Below, piece by piece: positions 9,361 through 22,902 of a DNA stretch of 27,880 bases. The translations under genes were made by a program, and so were the position numbers. The notes below the pieces were generated by a model. That model worked only from the letters and a program-made list of their open reading frames with translations. It ran no database searches and was not told the DNA's origin. Within the stretch, counting starts at the first letter, position 1, and the number at the start of each line of letters is the position of its first letter. Origin of the DNA: an uncultured Candidatus Bathyarchaeia archaeon. GTDB taxonomy: Archaea; Thermoproteota; Bathyarchaeia; Bathyarchaeales; Bathycorpusculaceae. The stretch spans positions 1 through 27,880 of the forward strand of contig CAZHZB010000002.1 in assembly GCA_964537045.1 (NCBI GenBank), given 5' to 3'.

Positions 9361-10131
9361 TTACGCACTTACTGGTGGCGGAGGACGAACAGATCTTCCT
9401 AGTTTTCTGCGCAGTGCGATCCGGTACAATTTTCTCATAGATTTCACAAGTCGTTCAACGCTGGGTAGGTTAGAGTACATCAATGGGATGCCGTCGTACT
9501 CTGCAAGTCTTATTGAGTAATCGTCCGGTTGCGTTCCGTGGAAAATGACGACTCGCGGTTTCAGACTGCTGACGCGGACAATGAGCATAGGGGAAGTTCC
9601 TCCATCTATATTCGTGAAAATCAACGCCCGCTCGGTGGTGGCACCAAAAAGCTGACTGAACTCGTGTCCCGAAAGAGTCTCAACAGCTCGTTGATTGTCC
9701 ACCACGGTGTAGCCGTTGATCTCCCGTACGCATCTTTCGGCGCACGCCACGATTTTTCCGTCTATTGCTTTGCACAGGTATTCTACCCTCACGGGCAAAG
9801 GAAACTCGCGAAGGTCTACGATGGCGTTGCTCGGAGAGCTAGTAAGCTTCGCAAACTCGTGTGTGAAGCGGCTACCGTGCTCTTCATCAAGCTTCAACAA
9901 GGCCCAGACGAATCTTCTGACGAACCTTGCGCCAGGACTCGGGCGTCGTCCGCTCTCGTAGTCACTGATGACTGATGAAGAAACGACCATCTTGTCTGAC
10001 ATGCTCATCTGAGAAATCGCGAAGAGCTCGCGCCACTTCCTCATAGTCGCCCCTGGCTTGCTTGAAAGAATTATCTCGCCAGCGATTCTCCTGGCAAGAA
10101 CAGATTCGCGAGCGCTGAGAGATGCAGCCAT
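9361..10131 (-). CDS. XRE-family HTH transcriptional regulator (COG1709-like) with DRTGG-like C-terminal domain
   Basis: RIAGEIILS..PG.TMRKWRELF.ISQ...SSSVISDYESGRR.SPG. C-terminal ALIFT...SPM...KPRVVIFHG...AE..GIPL. Confidence 0.85.
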   Translation of the reverse strand: MAASLSARESVLARRIAGEIILSSKPGATMRKWRELFAISQMSMSDKMVVSSSVISDYESGRRPSPGARFVRRFVWALLKLDEEHGSRFTHEFAKLTSSPSNAIVDLREFPLPVRVEYLCKAIDGKIVACAERCVREINGYTVVDNQRAVETLSGHEFSQLFGATTERALIFTNIDGGTSPMLIVRVSSLKPRVVIFHGTQPDDYSIRLAEYDGIPLMYSNLPSVERLVKSMRKLYRIALRRKLGRSVRPPPPVSA

Positions 10132-10210
10132 GTAATTGCGACCTTGATTGTCAGGCAATTTCCCCTAAAAGAACACGTAATATAAAAACCTAATCGCGCC
10201 ACGTGAAGTG

Positions 10211-11110
10211 CTAGAACATGAAAAGGAGAAAGATACCGAGCACGATTATTATTGTTCCAGCCACGTTTCTAATCGTGATTCGCTCTTTCAAGAATATCAT
10301 GCCCGAAACAACGGCAAAGAGAGGCGTCGTTGAAGATATGGGGACCGCCTGAGCCTCGGGAATGTAGAGAAAACTGTACGTCAAGAGGAACCAACCCAGT
10401 CCGAGTGCAACTAGACCTCCCAATGTCAACAATGCGAGAGACTTTCGCTGAATCTTGGCGAAACTGAATTTCCGGTCTGTCAAGGGCGTGGAAGCGAGTA
10501 GGAAAACGGCGACCGACAAGACTCTGATTGTGTTGAGAACCAGAGCACTGTCCAAAGTACCAGTTTCCGGAAGAGTCACGGCCGAGTTTATCATTGCTAT
10601 GCTTAAAGCCCAAAAGACTGCCGCTCCCAGAGCGAATAATCCGCCTCTAATTCGAAAACCTGCTTGCGCCATTCCTTCACTGGACTCTGGTTCTCTCGTG
10701 AGTAACCAGATTCCAAAGACTATTGCGACAGCCGCAACTATCACTTCGAAAGCAACGGTTTTAGGCTGAATCACCAAAGCCGGGAGAAGACTGAACAGAG
10801 GATAGGTACAGCTTATCGGAACAGCTCGTGAAACACCTATTTGCTTCAAGCTTACCATGTACAATGTGTCTCCCAAACCCAAGCCGATCAACCCGCTTAG
10901 AGACGAAAGAACCACGGAGTAGACGGGCAAGCTTGAGAAAACTGACAACTTGCCGATCAATGCTACAAATCCCATCAGAACTAGACTCGTGCAACCAAGA
11001 CGTACGATATTTGCCTGCAACGGTTTTGTGTTTGAGAGAGCCCTTCTGTACAATACTGCAGATACCGTCCACGAAATCGCAGTACCTAATGCCGCAAGTT
11101 CACCTAACAT
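10211..11110 (-). CDS. EamA/DMT family transporter (about 10 TM)
   Basis: Two EamA repeats; GVSRAVPISCTYPLF and AVPISSTTPLFAVVSGMIFLKERIT. Confidence 0.92.
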   Translation of the reverse strand: MLGELAALGTAISWTVSAVLYRRALSNTKPLQANIVRLGCTSLVLMGFVALIGKLSVFSSLPVYSVVLSSLSGLIGLGLGDTLYMVSLKQIGVSRAVPISCTYPLFSLLPALVIQPKTVAFEVIVAAVAIVFGIWLLTREPESSEGMAQAGFRIRGGLFALGAAVFWALSIAMINSAVTLPETGTLDSALVLNTIRVLSVAVFLLASTPLTDRKFSFAKIQRKSLALLTLGGLVALGLGWFLLTYSFLYIPEAQAVPISSTTPLFAVVSGMIFLKERITIRNVAGTIIIVLGIFLLFMF

Positions 11111-11190
11111 CTTTCCACGCGGTTCATGAGAAAAGGGCTTGAAGTTGTTAAATACCTAACGGTGCATAAGCTCCGAGCGGTGCATCAACG

Positions 11191-11892
11191 ATGCAGATCA
11201 AAGTCGAATGGAGTCAAGAAGTGAGTCAGAAATTTCCTGAACTAGCCATCTGCGTCGGCATGATTCAAAACATCAAGGTCAAAAAAGAAAACGAACAAAC
11301 CAAAATTCTCAAGAAGAAAGCCTGCGAAGAAGCCAGAGCCAATTATGACGCTGAAACCTTGAAAGATAACCCGACTGTAAGAGCCTACAGGGACATGTAC
11401 TGGAAACTGGATATCGACCCTACCAAGACAAGACCATCAGGCGAAGCTTTGCTACGGAGAGTCCTGCACCACAGCGATTTGCCCACCATATCCACAGCCG
11501 TTGACGCCTATAATTTGGCTTCTATGAAGACAATCGTACCAATAAGCGGATTCGACTATGAGCGTCTCACTCCACCATTTCAAGTCAGATTCGCTCGCGG
11601 CAATGAAAGATTCGCAGGAATAGGTAAGACAGAACCTATTCCTCTTGAATCGAAAATGCTGGTTTTTGGAAACGGAAAACAGGTCCTCTGCATTTACCCT
11701 TACCGTGATTGCGATCACACAAAGATCACGTTGAAGACTCACACTGCCATGATAGTCGGATACGGGGCTCCAGGAATATCTCCCGCCCAACTGCGGGAAG
11801 CCGTCGAGACAACATTGTCATTTATCAAACAGGTTTCGGGCGGCGAGATAGAAGCAGTAGAAACCTTTCAAAGTCCTACAGGAAAACAATAG
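11191..11892 (+). CDS. Stand-alone B3/4 domain protein (PheRS-beta editing domain-like, putative aminoacyl-tRNA deacylase)
   Basis: VRAYRDMYWKLDIDPTKTRPSGEALLRR, AVDAYNLAS, D.D, ICIYPYRDC.HTKIT. No other PheT domains present. Confidence 0.88.
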   Translation: MQIKVEWSQEVSQKFPELAICVGMIQNIKVKKENEQTKILKKKACEEARANYDAETLKDNPTVRAYRDMYWKLDIDPTKTRPSGEALLRRVLHHSDLPTISTAVDAYNLASMKTIVPISGFDYERLTPPFQVRFARGNERFAGIGKTEPIPLESKMLVFGNGKQVLCIYPYRDCDHTKITLKTHTAMIVGYGAPGISPAQLREAVETTLSFIKQVSGGEIEAVETFQSPTGKQ

Positions 11893-11897
11893 TCCGA

Positions 11898-12332
11898 TCA
11901 GGTTAGGTTACTGGTTGCGTAATAGAGAAATGGCAAGGCAAGAAGGATCGTGTTGCGTCCTTTGCACGTAAGCGAGTAGCCCACTCGGAGCGGAGGCCCC
12001 TGATCAACTGATCTCTTGATGAAACCGTAGCGATTCAGGATTTTCAGTTTGTCGGATAGAGTTCGTGAATTCACTCTGAGAATCTTCTTAAGTTCCCCGA
12101 ACCCTGTGGTTTCTCTGAGAAATAGTATGTAAAGAATCTGAAGGTTCCATTTTTGAGACAAAAGATCGAAGCTTTCTTCCAAGCTTTTTATCGTTTCTCT
12201 AAGCTCCTCCAAGCCGAGTTTTTGAGTTCCGAATATCTGCCTCAGTGTTTGTTCTATGCCTTCGATGTTGCTTTTCATTCGGGATTCTACTAGCTTGCGA
12301 AGTTCATTGCTCAACACTGCTTGGTGGTTCAT
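11898..12332 (-). CDS. HxlR-family winged helix-turn-helix regulator
   Basis: LSQKWNLQILY, FGELKK..VNSRTLSDKLK.L...GFIKR....PPLRVGYSLT.KG. Confidence 0.88.
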   Translation of the reverse strand: MNHQAVLSNELRKLVESRMKSNIEGIEQTLRQIFGTQKLGLEELRETIKSLEESFDLLSQKWNLQILYILFLRETTGFGELKKILRVNSRTLSDKLKILNRYGFIKRSVDQGPPLRVGYSLTCKGRNTILLALPFLYYATSNLT

Positions 12333-18389: not shown

Positions 18390-19457
18390 ATGTCAAAACA
18401 AGCCATTTGCCTCAAAATTCCAAAACTGCAGGGCCAGAAAACCCTCGTTCTAACAACCCGGCTCAGACTCGTCGACAGAGAACTGGAAATCGAGGAAAAC
18501 GGCAACTACCTCAACATTCCCCTTGCCAATCAACCTTCTCCCAGCGACTTCGAAACGCTCAAGAAAGAAGGAATCAATTTCGAGGTCTCAACTCAACTGT
18601 TCAAGCAAAGAAAGAAAAAGCCCTCACTTCCTGAGCTACTAGAATCTGAATTACCTATTAGTCTGATGGCGAGTCTACCGCATGCTGCAGACTTCATAGG
18701 TGAAATAGCCATAATTGAAATACCGCCCGAACTTGAACCCCATGAAAAAATCATCGGTAAAGCATTTCTAAGAGTACACAAAAATGTTCGCACAGTTCTA
18801 GCAAAAGCAGGTGCCGTCAGTGGAGCTTACCGATTGAGAGAATTCACTGTGATAGCCGGAGAACCCTCGACCGAAACGGTTCACAAAGAATCCGGATGTC
18901 TATTCAAGGTAGACGTTGCGAAGGCCTATTTTTCACCAAGACTGTCGAACGAACATAACAGAATCGCAGCTCTCGTTAGAGAGGGAGAAACGGTTGTAGA
19001 CTTGTTCGCAGGTGTCGGCCCATTCGCAATACTCATAGCCAAAACCCATGAAAGCGTGAAAGTCTACGCCGTGGACGCCAATCCCTATGCAGTGGATTAT
19101 ATGAAGACCAACATTCGACTCAACAGAGTGATGAACAAAGTCCATACTCAACTAGGAGACGCTCGGCAAATCACGAACGAGAAACTATCAGGCGTTGCTG
19201 ATCGCGTCATAATGAACCTGCCAGAGAAAGCCATCGAATTCGTCGATGTCGCATGCCGAGCATTGAAATCGAGTGGAGGCGTGATACACTTCTACACTTT
19301 CGTCGACGTGTCCAGTTCAATAGAGAACAAGAAACGCGATTTCAAAGAGGCGGTTGAGAAATCAGGAAGGAAAATCGAAGAGTTTCTATCTTTCAGAGTG
19401 GTCCGCGAGACAGCTCCTTATGAGTGGCAGGCTGTTGTCGACGCACAGATTCGTTAA
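18390..19457 (+). CDS. trm5: tRNA (guanine-37-N1)-methyltransferase Trm5 (aTrm5b/c-like, with N-terminal D1 domain)
   Basis: IGEIAII, G.YRLREF.VIAGE..T.HKESG..F.VD...YFSPRL..E..R, DLFAGVGPFAI, RVIMNLP. Confidence 0.92.
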   Translation: MSKQAICLKIPKLQGQKTLVLTTRLRLVDRELEIEENGNYLNIPLANQPSPSDFETLKKEGINFEVSTQLFKQRKKKPSLPELLESELPISLMASLPHAADFIGEIAIIEIPPELEPHEKIIGKAFLRVHKNVRTVLAKAGAVSGAYRLREFTVIAGEPSTETVHKESGCLFKVDVAKAYFSPRLSNEHNRIAALVREGETVVDLFAGVGPFAILIAKTHESVKVYAVDANPYAVDYMKTNIRLNRVMNKVHTQLGDARQITNEKLSGVADRVIMNLPEKAIEFVDVACRALKSSGGVIHFYTFVDVSSSIENKKRDFKEAVEKSGRKIEEFLSFRVVRETAPYEWQAVVDAQIR

Positions 19458-19888
19458 GTTCTTGCGATCAAGGTAATTCTGACTTTCTGGTTGGGATTCC
19501 TTGATCGGTTGACAAGTTCTCTTGACAGTTCATTTGCAGCTTTGTCCGCATGAATCGCCAACGTCCGGTTGCATACGTACCCACTTTTTCTGACAATAAT
19601 ATCGGTTGGATGCATAAGGGCTAAACGAGAATTTCCAATAGCAGTCACGATTTCAGTGACTCCGTTCGCTTCGATCAAGACAGTGATTTTCGCACCGTCC
19701 TTGCGAAGGTTCTCTTTGAACTCGGGGCTGAGGTCATCTAGCGCTTTGTTTGCACCCACTGCGATGATGCAATCGCCATCTCTTGACAGGTGAGTTTCTT
19801 TTGTAATTTCGAACGTTGTTCTATGCGTAGCGGTTACATTCTCATGTCCGTGGGCAATGATTGTTTCTCTCAGTTCGGTTGGACACAA
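19454..19888 (-). CDS. DUF371 family protein
   Basis: AHGHENVTATHRTTFEITKE.HLS..GDCIIAV.A and IIVRKS.Y...RTL.I.ADKAA. Confidence 0.88.
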   Translation of the reverse strand: MCPTELRETIIAHGHENVTATHRTTFEITKETHLSRDGDCIIAVGANKALDDLSPEFKENLRKDGAKITVLIEANGVTEIVTAIGNSRLALMHPTDIIVRKSGYVCNRTLAIHADKAANELSRELVNRSRNPNQKVRITLIART

Positions 19889-19889
19889 G

Positions 19890-20855
19890 CTACTCCAAGA
19901 CCTCTATCGAGTCAACTTTTCCGTCGCCGTCTAGATCGAATCCTTGAATGACCTTGGCGAAGGTTTCATCCCCGTGGTAGTTTTTCAGGGTTCTACTCCA
20001 GAAATTGGTCAGAGCCAGCACACAAGCTTTTGTGCCTACAGCCTTGTTCCCTGCGAGCACGATGATCCGTTTGTTGCTGTCCCAAGGGTTGACGATCTTC
20101 GCCACTAACCCCATATTGTCTGCCGTGTACACAGCTGAAGTTCTTTTGGAAACTAGTCCCCCGAATAGAAAACCTTCGTTTGAAGAATGCATGTCAAACC
20201 TGATCGGTAAGTGTTCGTTTACTTCCTGTGTCAACAGGTTAGTGCCAGGACCGCCGACGAGTATTAGATTGTTCTTCTCTTCTTTTTCTGCTTTGACGTC
20301 GACGTCGAGTTTTATCGCAAACTCGTCAGGCATTCGAACAAACTGACCCAGGAAGAAGGCTAGATGAGAGGCGTAGTGGCCGTCTCTGGCGCTTGTTTTG
20401 AATGGCCCGTGGGGTGTTGGGCTGCCTACGACTATTTTTCCATCAAAAGTGTCGTCTTCTTTGATTAGTTCTCTGAAAAAAGTGTGTACTTTGTCTTCCA
20501 TACTCAAGAGTGAGAGCTTTTTTATCGGTCTGTATCCTTGTGGAAGATCAATTCCAAAAGCCGATGAGGCGGCTCTGAAGTATTTTGCAGTGGCACCTTT
20601 TTTCACTTCTTCTCTCGTTACCACTATTGCGCCTGCCTTCTCGAGTTTTCTTATGTGATAGTAGACTTTCTGTTCGTGAATGTGCAGAACCTTTGCAATT
20701 TCAAGAGGATACATTTCTTTTTCAGAAAGCATCCGCAGAATCTTCCAACTCAGTTTGTTGAATATCAGTTTCAGCCGCTGCGGATCCTCCACTAACATGA
20801 TTTCCTTGACTTTCTGGGTTTTTCCATCATCCTTTAAGAGCAGTTTCTTGTCCAA
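19890..20855 (-). CDS. ArsR-like HTH regulator with C-terminal putative ligand domain (NLILVGGP..N) and terminal DxDxDG motif
   Basis: N-terminal WKIL..LSEKEMYPLEIAK.L..HEQKVYYHIRKLEKAG.I. C-terminal IVVGSPTPHGP...ARDGHYA, NLILVGGPGTN, GFDLDGDGKVDSIE. Confidence 0.8.
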   Translation of the reverse strand: MDKKLLLKDDGKTQKVKEIMLVEDPQRLKLIFNKLSWKILRMLSEKEMYPLEIAKVLHIHEQKVYYHIRKLEKAGAIVVTREEVKKGATAKYFRAASSAFGIDLPQGYRPIKKLSLLSMEDKVHTFFRELIKEDDTFDGKIVVGSPTPHGPFKTSARDGHYASHLAFFLGQFVRMPDEFAIKLDVDVKAEKEEKNNLILVGGPGTNLLTQEVNEHLPIRFDMHSSNEGFLFGGLVSKRTSAVYTADNMGLVAKIVNPWDSNKRIIVLAGNKAVGTKACVLALTNFWSRTLKNYHGDETFAKVIQGFDLDGDGKVDSIEVLE

Positions 20856-20893
20856 GATTCATCCGTGCCAAAGGATTAGAAATGAAAAGAACC

Positions 20894-20906
20894 TTTATAA
20901 CTTTTT
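20894..20906 (-). promoter_or_regulatory. BRE/TATA promoter of the HTH regulator
   Basis: Minus strand AAAAAG-TTATAAA about 40 nt upstream of TTG 20855. Confidence 0.5.
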
Positions 20907-21072
20907 TATTAATGCCCAAGAAAAATCATGAAGAAAAATCGTTTATCGATGTTGCCATTTGAATAATAGATCTAAGATTTCTGTTAGAACTCAGGTTTAA
21001 GTATTAACAATGCTTATTACCGAAAAACTGTTTCCATGGGACTTACTGCAACGAGAAATTGAGGCACTCTTG

Positions 21073-22902
21073 ATGTGTGGAATATTCGGCTGCATCCTGG
21101 AAGAAAAGAACGCTGCTCCGATCATACATGCAGCGCTGAAAAGACTTGAATATCGAGGCTACGATTCCGTTGGAGAAGCCACGCTACACGAAGGAAAACT
21201 CCACGTAAAAAAGGATCAGGGAAAAATCGACGATGTCCATAGACTGCGCAACCTAGATGACCTCCCTGGAAGCATCGGTATCGGACACACAAGATGGGCA
21301 ACGCACGGCGCCCCCCTCCAAGTGAATTCACATCCCCACACTGACTGCAACGAACAAATAGCAGTTGTCCACAACGGAATCATTGAGAATTTTGATGAAC
21401 TGCGCACCGATCTTGAGAATCACGGTCACACTTTCAAATCCAAGACGGATACGGAAGTTGTACCTCATCTTATCGAAGAGATTCTGAGAAACAATCCTTC
21501 TCTTGGTTTGACTGGCGCCGTTGCCGAGGCTGTGAAGAAGCTCCAAGGATCCTACGCCATCGCTGTCATCTCGTCAGAGGAACCAGACAAGATAGTCTGT
21601 GTTCGAAACGAAAGCCCGCTTGTCATCGGAGTCAACGAAAAAGACGTTTTCTTCTCTTCAGATATTCCAGCCTTTCTTCCCCTGACTAACAAAGTATTGA
21701 TAGTTGAAGATGGCGAAATCGTGACAATTTCGCTGGGAAAAGCTGAGATTAGGAAAATAGCGGACTCAAGAATTGTCTCACGAGAACCTAAAGCCGTTGA
21801 TTGGAGCCCAGAAATGGCAGTCAAGCAAGGCTACCCGCATTTCATGATAAAAGAAATTCACGAACAACCTGACTGCCTGCGCAACACTCTCAGGGTTCAA
21901 GAGCACTATGCAGATCTCATGTCAACTTTCTTAGATCGTGCTCGAGACGTTTACATGGTAGCTTGCGGGACATCTTATCACGCGTGTTTAGCGGCATCAT
22001 ATATGTTCTCAAAACTCGCTTTTCTACCCACTTACCCAATAATAGCATCCGAATTCGTAGAACAATGCGGAAAATCAGTCAACATCGACAGCACCATCCT
22101 TGCAGTGAGCCAATCGGGAGAAACCGCAGACACTCTAGCCTCCGTCAGCACTGCACGCGAGCGAGCAGCCACAATTCTGGGATTGACCAACGCAATTGGC
22201 TCAACTTTGACAAGGGTTTCGAGAGTCTACATCGGCCAGCAGTCTGGACCAGAAATAGGTGTTGCAGCAACGAAAACCTTCACTTCGCAGCTTTCGGTAA
22301 TGGCCCAACTGGCATTGAGGCTCGCAAAGAAACGCGGCAAGGTTTCACAGGATGAGATGGACTACCTCGCTGAAAAAATGAAAAAACTTCCAGACATAGT
22401 CCAAGAAATTATCCTCAAACAAGAGGAAAAGACGAAGCAAATGGCTAGGAAGTACAAGGACGCAAAAGCTTTCTTCTTCCTTGGCAGAGGCATAAATACT
22501 GCGACGGCATATGAGGGCAGACTCAAGCTGATGGAAATCGCCTATATACCTGCCATAGCCTTTCCTGCAGGAGAGAGTAAGCACGGGCCGATCAGCCTTG
22601 TAGAACCAGGTTTTCCAGTGGTTTTCGTATGTGCAAAAGATGGAACTCACAAAACGCTGATTGGAAACATAATGGAAATGAAGGCTAGAGGTGCTTCAAT
22701 AATCGCCATTGTGGAAGAAGGAGATGAAGAGATCAAGAAACTGGCGGACGACTACATTGAAGTGCCGAAAGACATCCCGGAAGTTCTGTCACCCGTACCG
22801 TTCGTCGTCCCATTACAGATGCTGGCATACTACATGGCCGTGGAGAGAGGCCTCAACCCAGACAGACCCAGAAATCTAGCCAAATCAGTAACGGTCAAAT
22901 AG
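21073..22902 (+). CDS. glmS: Glutamine--fructose-6-phosphate transaminase (isomerizing)
   Basis: N-terminal nucleophile MCGIFG, RLEYRGYDS, GHTRWATHG, HNGIIEN, SQSGETADT, VAATKTF, KHGP, DRPRNLAKSVTV. GAGG RBS before ATG 21073. Confidence 0.97.
   Translation: MCGIFGCILEEKNAAPIIHAALKRLEYRGYDSVGEATLHEGKLHVKKDQGKIDDVHRLRNLDDLPGSIGIGHTRWATHGAPLQVNSHPHTDCNEQIAVVHNGIIENFDELRTDLENHGHTFKSKTDTEVVPHLIEEILRNNPSLGLTGAVAEAVKKLQGSYAIAVISSEEPDKIVCVRNESPLVIGVNEKDVFFSSDIPAFLPLTNKVLIVEDGEIVTISLGKAEIRKIADSRIVSREPKAVDWSPEMAVKQGYPHFMIKEIHEQPDCLRNTLRVQEHYADLMSTFLDRARDVYMVACGTSYHACLAASYMFSKLAFLPTYPIIASEFVEQCGKSVNIDSTILAVSQSGETADTLASVSTARERAATILGLTNAIGSTLTRVSRVYIGQQSGPEIGVAATKTFTSQLSVMAQLALRLAKKRGKVSQDEMDYLAEKMKKLPDIVQEIILKQEEKTKQMARKYKDAKAFFFLGRGINTATAYEGRLKLMEIAYIPAIAFPAGESKHGPISLVEPGFPVVFVCAKDGTHKTLIGNIMEMKARGASIIAIVEEGDEEIKKLADDYIEVPKDIPEVLSPVPFVVPLQMLAYYMAVERGLNPDRPRNLAKSVTVK

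Follow-up and report, generated by a model that had tools for sequence, protein, structure and literature searches.

In bacteria, the control of glmS, the gene for glutamine-fructose-6-phosphate aminotransferase, is among the most elaborate described and involves a ribozyme, the small RNAs GlmY and GlmZ together with RapZ, NagC, and GlmR, with glucosamine 6-phosphate (GlcN-6-P) and UDP-N-acetylglucosamine (UDP-GlcNAc) being the usual feedback signals for glmS. In archaea, UDP-GlcNAc supplies N-glycans, S-layer glycoproteins, pseudomurein, and other envelope polymers; our full-text literature searches did not find a regulator of archaeal glmS. Here, we describe a gene that lies divergently from glmS in a 27,880-nt stretch of DNA from an uncultured Candidatus Bathyarchaeia archaeon (contig CAZHZB010000002.1 of assembly GCA_964537045.1, positions 1 to 27,880; hereafter, the window) and that encodes a member of a large, uncharacterized archaeal family of one-component transcription regulators. 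Like archaeal TrmB and bacterial NagC and NagR/DasR, the predicted regulator combines a DNA-binding domain with a sensor domain and is encoded beside the sugar gene that it would control; however, TrmB, NagC, NagR/DasR, the glmS ribozyme, GlmY/GlmZ-RapZ, and GlmR/YvcK show no homology to its sensor domain. The described proteins closest to its N-terminal part are PH1932 (PDB 1ULY/2CWE) and Phr of P. furiosus (PDB 2P4W), which, like the regulator, are archaeal proteins of DNA-binding type and which share the layout of its ~110 N-terminal residues, i.e. a beta-hairpin, a winged helix, and the next helix. On the other hand, PH1932 and Phr are chains of ~190-200 amino acids whose part following the winged helix has no match to the C-terminal domain of the regulator in sequence and fold searches, whereas the regulator continues into a 190-amino acid alpha/beta domain resembling an S-layer anchor, with PHGP and ARDG motifs and a DxDxDG loop. 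The divergent pair and its spacer are laid out as follows.

19890..20855, minus strand: regulator gene, 321 amino acids, TTG start, TAG stop at 19890-19892, from the list of open reading frames and their translation.
20856..21072, between the two genes: control region of 217 bp shared by the regulator and glmS, with conserved blocks in an alignment of 60 spacers.
21073..22902, plus strand: glmS, the predicted target, with Pfam GATase_6/7 and two SIS domains and the start MCGIFG.

The open reading frame of the regulator is uninterrupted, and its TTG start is credible because the close homologues compared begin at the matching position with MxKKLLL; at the other end, the translation reads ...VIQGFDLDGDGKVDSIEVLE. 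The longest hydrophobic run comprises 8 residues, and therefore the protein has no signal peptide or membrane segment and a cytoplasmic location is expected, i.e. the regulator should be a soluble cytoplasmic protein. A word-indexed search returned 3803 family matches at E<=1e-3, whereas an exhaustive search of representatives at 50% identity returned 703 at E<=1e-3 and 163 at E<=1e-30. Conservation is reported below for a set of 118 full-length representatives, which share 29-55% identity with the query and have a mean column identity of 33%. Full-text literature searches did not find a paper on the family. Several of its members are named "S-layer protein" in GenBank, a label that is most likely wrong, and CSUB_C1439, the member from Ca. 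Caldarchaeum subterraneum, is annotated as "hypothetical protein."

The connection with amino sugar synthesis comes from gene order. A first-pass annotation of the window, made from the letters of the sequence, had the regulator divergent from glmS and suspected that the two were functionally linked; the divergent arrangement was confirmed, the spacer running from 20856 to 21072, and it is a lasting one. Across the Bathyarchaeia set, comprising the 80 closest species-level relatives (70-91% identity; the locus search, seeded with 11 sequences, returned only Bathyarchaeia), the order of glmS, divergent regulator, DUF371 gene, and convergent Trm5 gene is constant, with glmS present in 76 of 80 cases and DUF371 in 78. 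A profile search of 301 Thermoproteota genomes identified full-length copies (E<1e-80) in 53 genomes belonging to at least 12 families, and a true glmS is found in 45 of these 53. The regulator and glmS form a divergent pair separated by no more than 320 bp in 34 of the 45 genomes, a count that reaches 36 cumulatively for gaps of up to 700 bp; in 6 further genomes the pair is divergent with 1.2-2.4 kb inserted, and in the last 3 the two genes lie on separate contig ends. These counts refer to one phylum sampled evenly, complemented by single examples from other phyla. Outside the close relatives, the pairing with glmS holds at 33-45% protein identity; for example, it is seen in Caldarchaeales (41-44% identity), including the complete genome of Ca. 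Caldarchaeum subterraneum with CSUB_C1439, in the cultured Nitrososphaera viennensis (CP007536, protein AIC15044.1, 160-bp gap), in Heimdall/Hodarchaeota, in Baldr/Odinarchaeota, and in Aenigmarchaeota (CP066684, 98-bp gap). Other genes of the same pathway may take the place of glmS. In a metagenome-assembled genome of Diapherotrites, the divergent neighbors are a phosphoglucosamine-mutase-type gene (glmM) and a hexapeptide acetyltransferase gene, and in a Thermoproteota family that lacks glmS (f32) the neighbor is a GlmU-like gene with NTP_transf_4 and Hexapep domains. That three different enzymes of one pathway are repeatedly paired with this protein across Thermoproteota, Asgard, and DPANN archaea points to function and is hardly explicable otherwise, so that the suspected link to glmS is now backed by synteny far beyond the lineage in which it was noticed. 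Transcriptional control of the pathway and of its own gene would be the natural function of a divergently encoded winged-helix protein, and gene order makes it likely that the regulator controls glmS or the hexosamine pathway.

The N-terminal third carries the DNA-binding module, in which three nested features can be delimited.

20556..20783, minus strand: winged helix-turn-helix, residues ~25-100, from Pfam, the PH1932 match, and Foldseek.
20619-20744, minus strand: Pfam HTH_20 match, residues 38-79 (4e-11, 43.1 bits, cut-off 27).
20643-20678, minus strand: recognition helix HEQKVYYHIRKL, within the winged helix.

A second Pfam family, HTH_5, matches the same residues 38-79 (6e-7, 29.6 bits versus a cut-off of 22), and a phmmer search aligned residues 17-128 with PH1932 of Pyrococcus horikoshii (PDB 1ULY) at 5.9e-12. 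The AlphaFold2 model of the full-length protein, built on the 118 relatives, reached a mean predicted local distance difference test score (pLDDT) of 94.2 and shows an N-terminal beta-hairpin, the winged helix, a linker helix at residues 112-126, and an alpha/beta domain; a Foldseek search of the PDB with the N-terminal part returned 1uly (8e-8), Phr (2p4w), CadC, and SmtB. Both family profiles and the fold thus place it among ArsR-type, PH1932-like winged helices, and Q62, Y66, and L71 are almost invariant in the 118 relatives. This bears out the view of the first-pass annotation that the protein resembles a helix-turn-helix (HTH) transcription factor, and we consider it very probable, from these homologies, that it is a DNA-binding regulator. 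Two more specific assignments were rejected. As an ArsR/SmtB metalloregulator, the protein scores 22.9 bits against the cut-off of 55 of the NCBIfam model HTH_metalloreg (NF033788), and Cys/His metal-site motifs are not among the conserved HTH columns of the 118 relatives. As a TrmB-family regulator, it scores 21.6 against the PF01978 cut-off of 25.6, over residues 42-92 only, and there is no match to TrmB_C.

The remainder of the protein is related to a domain known from the cell surface of other archaea.

19893..20468, minus strand: C-terminal alpha/beta domain, residues 130-321 (~190 amino acids), homologous to a dimer-forming S-layer anchor domain.
20373..20426, minus strand: GSPTPHGP (20403-20426) and ARDGHY (20373-20390), with invariant or near-invariant core residues.
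20238..20270, minus strand: NLILVGGPGTN, a strand-loop-helix motif that aligns with LILVGGPVAN of the Methanococcus voltae S-layer protein.

Residues 180-284 match Pfam S_layer_C (PF05124) with 30.5 bits, above the cut-off of 23.9, which makes the region a member of this domain family. In the Foldseek search with the full-length model, the C-terminal part matched 9FSA, which is the S-layer protein of M. voltae in the region named "cell wall anchoring domain." A separate AlphaFold2 model of residues 128-321 (pLDDT 94.5) was likewise compared with the PDB by Foldseek, and the sole match below E 1e-3 was again 9FSA (E 4e-5, template-modeling (TM) score 0.64), against the sequence of which a profile of the C-terminal domain gave an E value of 8e-8. 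Within the S-layer anchor, the 9FSA domain is responsible for two-fold dimerization, and it is built from residues 24-75 and 484-576 of the S-layer protein (PMC11410804). The profile alignment brings out motifs common to the regulator and the M. voltae protein, namely IVVGS, LDxEV, LILVGGPVAN, and VVAGG..AT, and, more generally, the regulator shares the fold and the motifs IVVGS, LDxEV, LILVGGPxxN, and VxAGxxxxT with the S-layer anchors of Methanococcales and Thermococcales (PF05124; 9FSA). Within NLILVGGPGTN, the residues G201, G202, and N206 are at least 90% conserved. The S-layer version, however, is extracellular, has lattice domains of ~400 residues inserted between its two parts, and lacks PHGP/ARDG and the terminal loop, whereas in the regulator the domain is uninterrupted, lies in the cytoplasm, and shares its chain with a DNA-binding domain. 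The region of GSPxPHGP and ARDG reads TAAAADVVSAANVAAKV in the 9FSA alignment; in the 118 relatives H149 is invariant and G144, P146, G150, and D158 are at least 90% conserved. Judged from these alignments, the regulator has gained GSPxPHGP, ARDG, and the terminal loop over the classical S-layer domain, the loop being counted as a gain because it is without counterpart in the Methanococcus S-layer domain. The first-pass annotation had read the middle of the protein as S-layer-related from the NLILVGGPGTN motif, which it placed in S-layer C-terminal domains, and had pointed to the polar residues of PHGP and RDGHY; all of this stood up in the profile, fold, and conservation analyses. A reading of the domain as a calcium-sensor or sugar-binding fold found no such footing, since beyond 9FSA there were only weak Foldseek matches (query-normalized TM <=0.54) to the flavodoxin-like domain of BcsB, accessory domains of GH67/GH115, and MogA, none of which names a ligand. 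Because the S-layer anchor domain forms a two-fold dimer, its presence suits a winged-helix regulator, which needs a dimer.

The protein ends with an acidic loop, which had attracted attention as a possible calcium site.

19902..19937, minus strand: DLDGDGKVDSIE, residues 307-318, a cation-type DxDxDGxxD loop in a beta-hairpin, four residues from the C terminus, from checked coordinates, the AlphaFold2 model, and conservation.

The first-pass annotation gave this segment as D-L-D-G-D-G-K-V-D-S-I-E at the same coordinates, and the 13-mer DLDGDGKVDSIEV indeed fits the EF-hand pattern PROSITE PS00018. A scan of the open frames of at least 100 amino acids in the whole genome (521,550 residues) gave 7 PS00018-type matches and 2 matches to D.[DN].[DN]G..D, so that a single occurrence of the loop could be due to chance; its conservation in the 118 relatives shows that it is not. 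Position 1 is D in 116 of the 118, position 3 is D in 93, N in 14, and S in 4 (D/N/S in 111; D/N in 107), position 5 is D in 109, position 6 is G in 112, and position 8 is I or V in 111, whereas position 9 is D in 110 (93%) and E in 5. Position 12 is far more variable, with E in 76 (64%), D in 11, K in 15, and R in 6, i.e. an acidic residue in 87 (74%). The pattern D.[DN].[DN]G..D is matched by 97 of the 118, and G305, two residues ahead of the loop, is invariant. Loss of the acidic positions among homologues had been named in the first-pass annotation as grounds for abandoning its reading, and the motif passed this comparison. It had also noted beta-like flanks and preferred the term DxDxDG motif, and both points are supported by the model, in which strands 299-306 and 316-319 (pLDDT 96-98) enclose the loop; its heading of a "canonical EF-hand-type" loop, on the other hand, does not hold. 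An EF-hand requires a helix-loop-helix and an acidic bidentate ligand (Glu) at loop position 12. Both fail here, and the loop is therefore not an EF-hand; the Pfam scores are 13.9 versus a cut-off of 25.4 for EF-hand_1 and 11.9 versus 25.9 for EF-hand_5. Dockerin was likewise rejected (Dockerin_1, 13.0 versus a cut-off of 22.9), the loop being single and without duplication. The conserved unit is a nine-residue D-x-D-x-D-G-x-x-D hairpin of calcium-blade type, and it belongs to the Dx[DN]xDG motif class of Rigden and Galperin, with the conserved motif and D9 as an extra acidic residue. Calcium blades have an extra ligand two residues past the Dx[DN]xDG motif (Rigden et al. 2011, PMC3123361), and, as in the calcium blade of integrin-type beta-propellers, the motif of the regulator sits between two beta-strands with the extra acidic residue two positions on; unlike calcium blades and EF-hands, it is a single copy that ends an alpha/beta domain and is part of neither a propeller nor a helix-loop-helix. 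The loop probably binds a divalent cation.

The spacer between the two genes was compared in 60 Bathyarchaeia and contains the following features.

20893..20900, minus strand: TTATAAAG, likely TATA box of the regulator gene, part of a block that is conserved in the alignment and precedes the start codon by ~40 nt.
20971..20988, between the core promoters: TCTAA-N8-TTAGA dyad, candidate operator, aligning with CTAAAAA-N-TTTTTAG dyads of relatives.
20996..21020, plus strand: core promoter block of glmS, TTTAAGTA, with the conserved GTATTAACAATGCTTATTAC, in the putative role of transcription factor B recognition element (BRE) and TATA box.
21061..21065, plus strand: GAGGC, ribosome-binding site 8 nt ahead of the glmS ATG; GCCTC recurs at this place in almost every one of the 60 spacers.

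Conservation within the spacer is strongest at 21001-21020, where the consensus on the glmS strand is CTCCTAAAAATGCTTATTA. The longest reading frame of glmS begins at an ATG at 21010, and the conserved start at the N-terminal nucleophile, MCG, is at 21073; the automatic start at 21010 is wrong because the ribosome-binding site and the conserved promoter block both fall within the 63-nt "extension" from 21010 to 21072. The dyads of the relatives often take the form CTAAAAA-N(0-5)-TTTTTAG, with arms of up to 12 bp (ACTGCTAAAAGA/TCTTTTAGCAGT) in one locus, L059. Statistically, the dyad stands out only modestly; dyads of at least 8 bp occur in 12% of the spacers versus 1.3% of shuffles, a figure that is inflated by relatedness, and CTAAAA/TTTTAG occurs 101 times versus 36 +/- 6 in dinucleotide shuffles, an excess that is inflated by kinship and by the copy in the glmS promoter block. 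In other lineages the equivalent place is taken by other sequences; Caldarchaeales have an ACCGGT-centered dyad in a spacer of ~70-100 bp, and two DPANN loci have a dyad AAAATGGT/ACCATTTT between the divergent promoters. The recognition helix of Caldarchaeales is SKQLVSLHVERM in place of HEQKVYYHIRKL, so that a matching change of operator is to be expected. A universal operator was rejected, as each clade has a dyad of its own and no one motif is common to the lineages, and a direct repeat at 20918-20940, AAGAAAAATC, was discarded as an operator because it lies in a non-conserved stretch of the alignment. We consider the dyads to be candidate operators. Elsewhere in the same genome, on the minus strand of contig C4 at ~9674-12300, a glmM-like gene is followed by a GlmU-like gene (nucleotidyltransferase and hexapeptide), and upstream of them a 7-bp inverted repeat, GTCTAGT-N27-ACTAGAC, surrounds a TATA box, TTTTTAAATA. 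The regulator may have a second site in this repeat; the likeness of the repeat to the TCTAA/TTAGA half-sites is too loose for a shared site to be claimed.

Other neighbors of the pair differ between lineages. On the far side of the regulator in the window lies one more gene of the same orientation.

19454..19888, minus strand: DUF371 gene, one base past the regulator stop (Pfam DUF371, 1.8e-49).

DUF371 is found directly downstream of the regulator in Bathyarchaeia only, and it is probably co-transcribed with the regulator as a clade-specific operon partner. In the Aenigmarchaeota locus of CP066684 (L111 415-3902), two genes of the same orientation come after glmS, the first of the CofD/YvcK family and the second for an NTP_transferase (nucleotidyltransferase). 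In Bacillus, YvcK (GlmR) binds UDP-GlcNAc and activates GlmS, and an archaeal GlmR-like partner is thus possible at this locus. In family f30 (L093 4336-7348), the regulator is divergent from a GNAT acetyltransferase gene and has a gene for a SIS-domain protein behind it, and this arrangement could be an alternative amino sugar module with GNA1-like acetylation. In one further genome (G125:C30:2712-4347), the glmS beside the regulator is in two frames (residues 1-139 and 241-609), reflecting a frameshift, a deletion, or an assembly error.

From the domain homologies, motif conservation, and synteny, we favor, on balance, a dimeric one-component regulator of hexosamine (UDP-GlcNAc) synthesis that probably has a structural cation site. 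In this mechanism, the PH1932/Phr-like, ArsR-type winged helix would bind DNA, and the C-terminal domain would most likely supply the homodimer needed for reading a dyad-symmetric site. The dimer would bind a dyad within the spacer shared with glmS and would thereby control glmS, the product of which catalyzes the first committed step toward UDP-GlcNAc, as well as its own gene and DUF371. As for the direction of control, binding to a site ahead of the glmS BRE/TATA could result in activation, and binding to the half-site that overlaps this block could result in repression. An effector would act through the C-terminal domain, for which the residues of PHGP and ARDG(H)Y are a candidate pocket; by analogy with the bacterial systems, this effector might, tentatively, be a hexosamine metabolite such as GlcN-6-P or UDP-GlcNAc. 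The DxDxDGxxD hairpin would hold a divalent cation (Ca2+ or Mg2+), most probably at a structural site that the domain has kept from its extracellular forms.

Several observations weigh against this reading. Synteny among close relatives is partly inheritance. The window's own dyad is weak, with 5-bp arms, and the candidate operators are A/T-rich and differ between lineages. PHGP and the loop also occur in a protein that is not a regulator, so that they may be purely structural, which would leave no identified effector pocket. Moreover, the regulator does not always adjoin a gene of the UDP-GlcNAc pathway; in family f24, which has no glmS in the genome, it adjoins ADH, RACo, and DHDPS genes, in Thermoplasmata it adjoins genes for DUF7839 and a PQQ protein, and in f30 and one f37 genome (G130) it adjoins a GNAT acetyltransferase gene. 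All of these exceptional lineages (f24, Thermoplasmata, f30, and f37) retain the PHGP motif and the loop. At E<=1e-40, glmS was not detected in G017, G025, G033, G137 (f24), G262, and G286 (f32), in which the regulator is nevertheless full-length and its loop intact; the f24 and f32 genomes either make or obtain hexosamine in some other way or have a regulator with another target. Members that persist in genomes without glmS or beside the unrelated genes of Thermoplasmata and f24, and a co-transcribed partner in Bathyarchaeia, DUF371, that is no amino sugar gene, would fit a transcription factor for which glmS is not the main or specific target, one that acts more broadly or is purely autoregulated, the adjacency being a long-lived arrangement around a bidirectional promoter. 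This explanation is unlikely, however, given that the adjacency to glmS survives down to 33-45% identity in at least three archaeal superphyla while all other neighbors change and that the substitute for glmS is repeatedly another gene of the UDP-GlcNAc pathway.

It is somewhat less probable still that the terminal loop is, along the lines of the first-pass annotation, a regulatory sensor of Ca2+ or another divalent cation, the occupancy of which would change DNA binding so that glmS and the synthesis of envelope sugars follow the intracellular cation or envelope status. The loop is among the best-conserved parts of the protein across phyla, it stands at the extreme C terminus of a cytoplasmic DNA-binding protein, and it has been added relative to the Methanococcus S-layer domain, all of which would be in keeping with such a role. 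Conservation alone, however, cannot tell a structural role from a regulatory one, free Ca2+ is low in the prokaryotic cytoplasm, and the lineages examined show no Ca2+ transporter or other Ca2+-related gene in linkage with the locus. Dx[DN]xDG sites have regulatory as well as structural roles (PMC3123361), and a regulatory one could therefore be entertained here. Against this stands an open reading frame of 1904 amino acids from a sister lineage (L113 23-5734, plus strand), which has a Peptidase_S8 (subtilase) domain and ends in the same anchor-like domain, with ...SDPHGP..., LDTD, IGGPGIN, GDGTRAA, and the loop WIDSNNNAKVDADD. This protein is presumably secreted, and the usual reading of a loop of this type closing a domain of a secreted protein is structural Ca2+. 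The terminal loop of the same subtilase can also be read as DSNNNAKVDADD, of DxNxN type, alongside its PHGP motif, and a stand-alone copy of the domain, of 230 amino acids, ends with VDEDNDGVQDD. The PHGP motif and the cation-type loop are thus features of a sub-family of anchor domains that is also borne by large proteins, presumably secreted ones. Because the same domain and loop are found on the subtilase, an inherited structural cation site is a simpler explanation than a new Ca2+ sensor, and we lean toward a cation in the loop of the regulator that is structural rather than a signal. Finally, the idea that the protein is not a regulator and is instead an S-layer or envelope-associated structural protein, in line with the GenBank name of several members and with an S_layer_C score above the cut-off, can be dismissed as very improbable, because the protein has no signal peptide or membrane segment, a winged helix, its recognition helix conserved, can be assigned with confidence to the N-terminal third, the protein scores 18.1 against the cut-off of 25 of TIGR01564 (S_layer_MJ), and its 321 amino acids do not include the lattice-forming domains that split the anchor domain in real S-layer proteins.

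Together, these data make the family of this winged-helix protein a strong candidate, as far as homology and gene order can tell, for an archaeal regulator of cell envelope sugar synthesis. The occurrence of members in the cultured ammonia oxidizer Nitrososphaera viennensis as well as in Asgard and DPANN archaea makes the family accessible to ordinary biochemistry, and the recurrent misnaming of its members as "S-layer protein" in databases would be corrected. The recruitment of domains is also unusual, as an extracellular lattice-anchor domain would have been reused as the dimerization and sensor module of a cytoplasmic transcription factor. A far-reaching and improbable extension of the regulator model would be that the family is the feedback switch of archaeal envelope sugar synthesis that has so far been missing and that the loop is more than structural, its cation either bridging the (di)phosphate of GlcN-6-P or UDP-GlcNAc, as with the DxD motif of glycosyltransferases, or reporting intracellular Ca2+, so that cation and hexosamine status together set the transcription of glmS. 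From an evolutionary point of view, archaea from DPANN to Asgard would then, if this is true, rely on a switch for the synthesis of envelope sugars that arose when a winged helix became joined to the S-layer anchor domain, which is itself part of the envelope.

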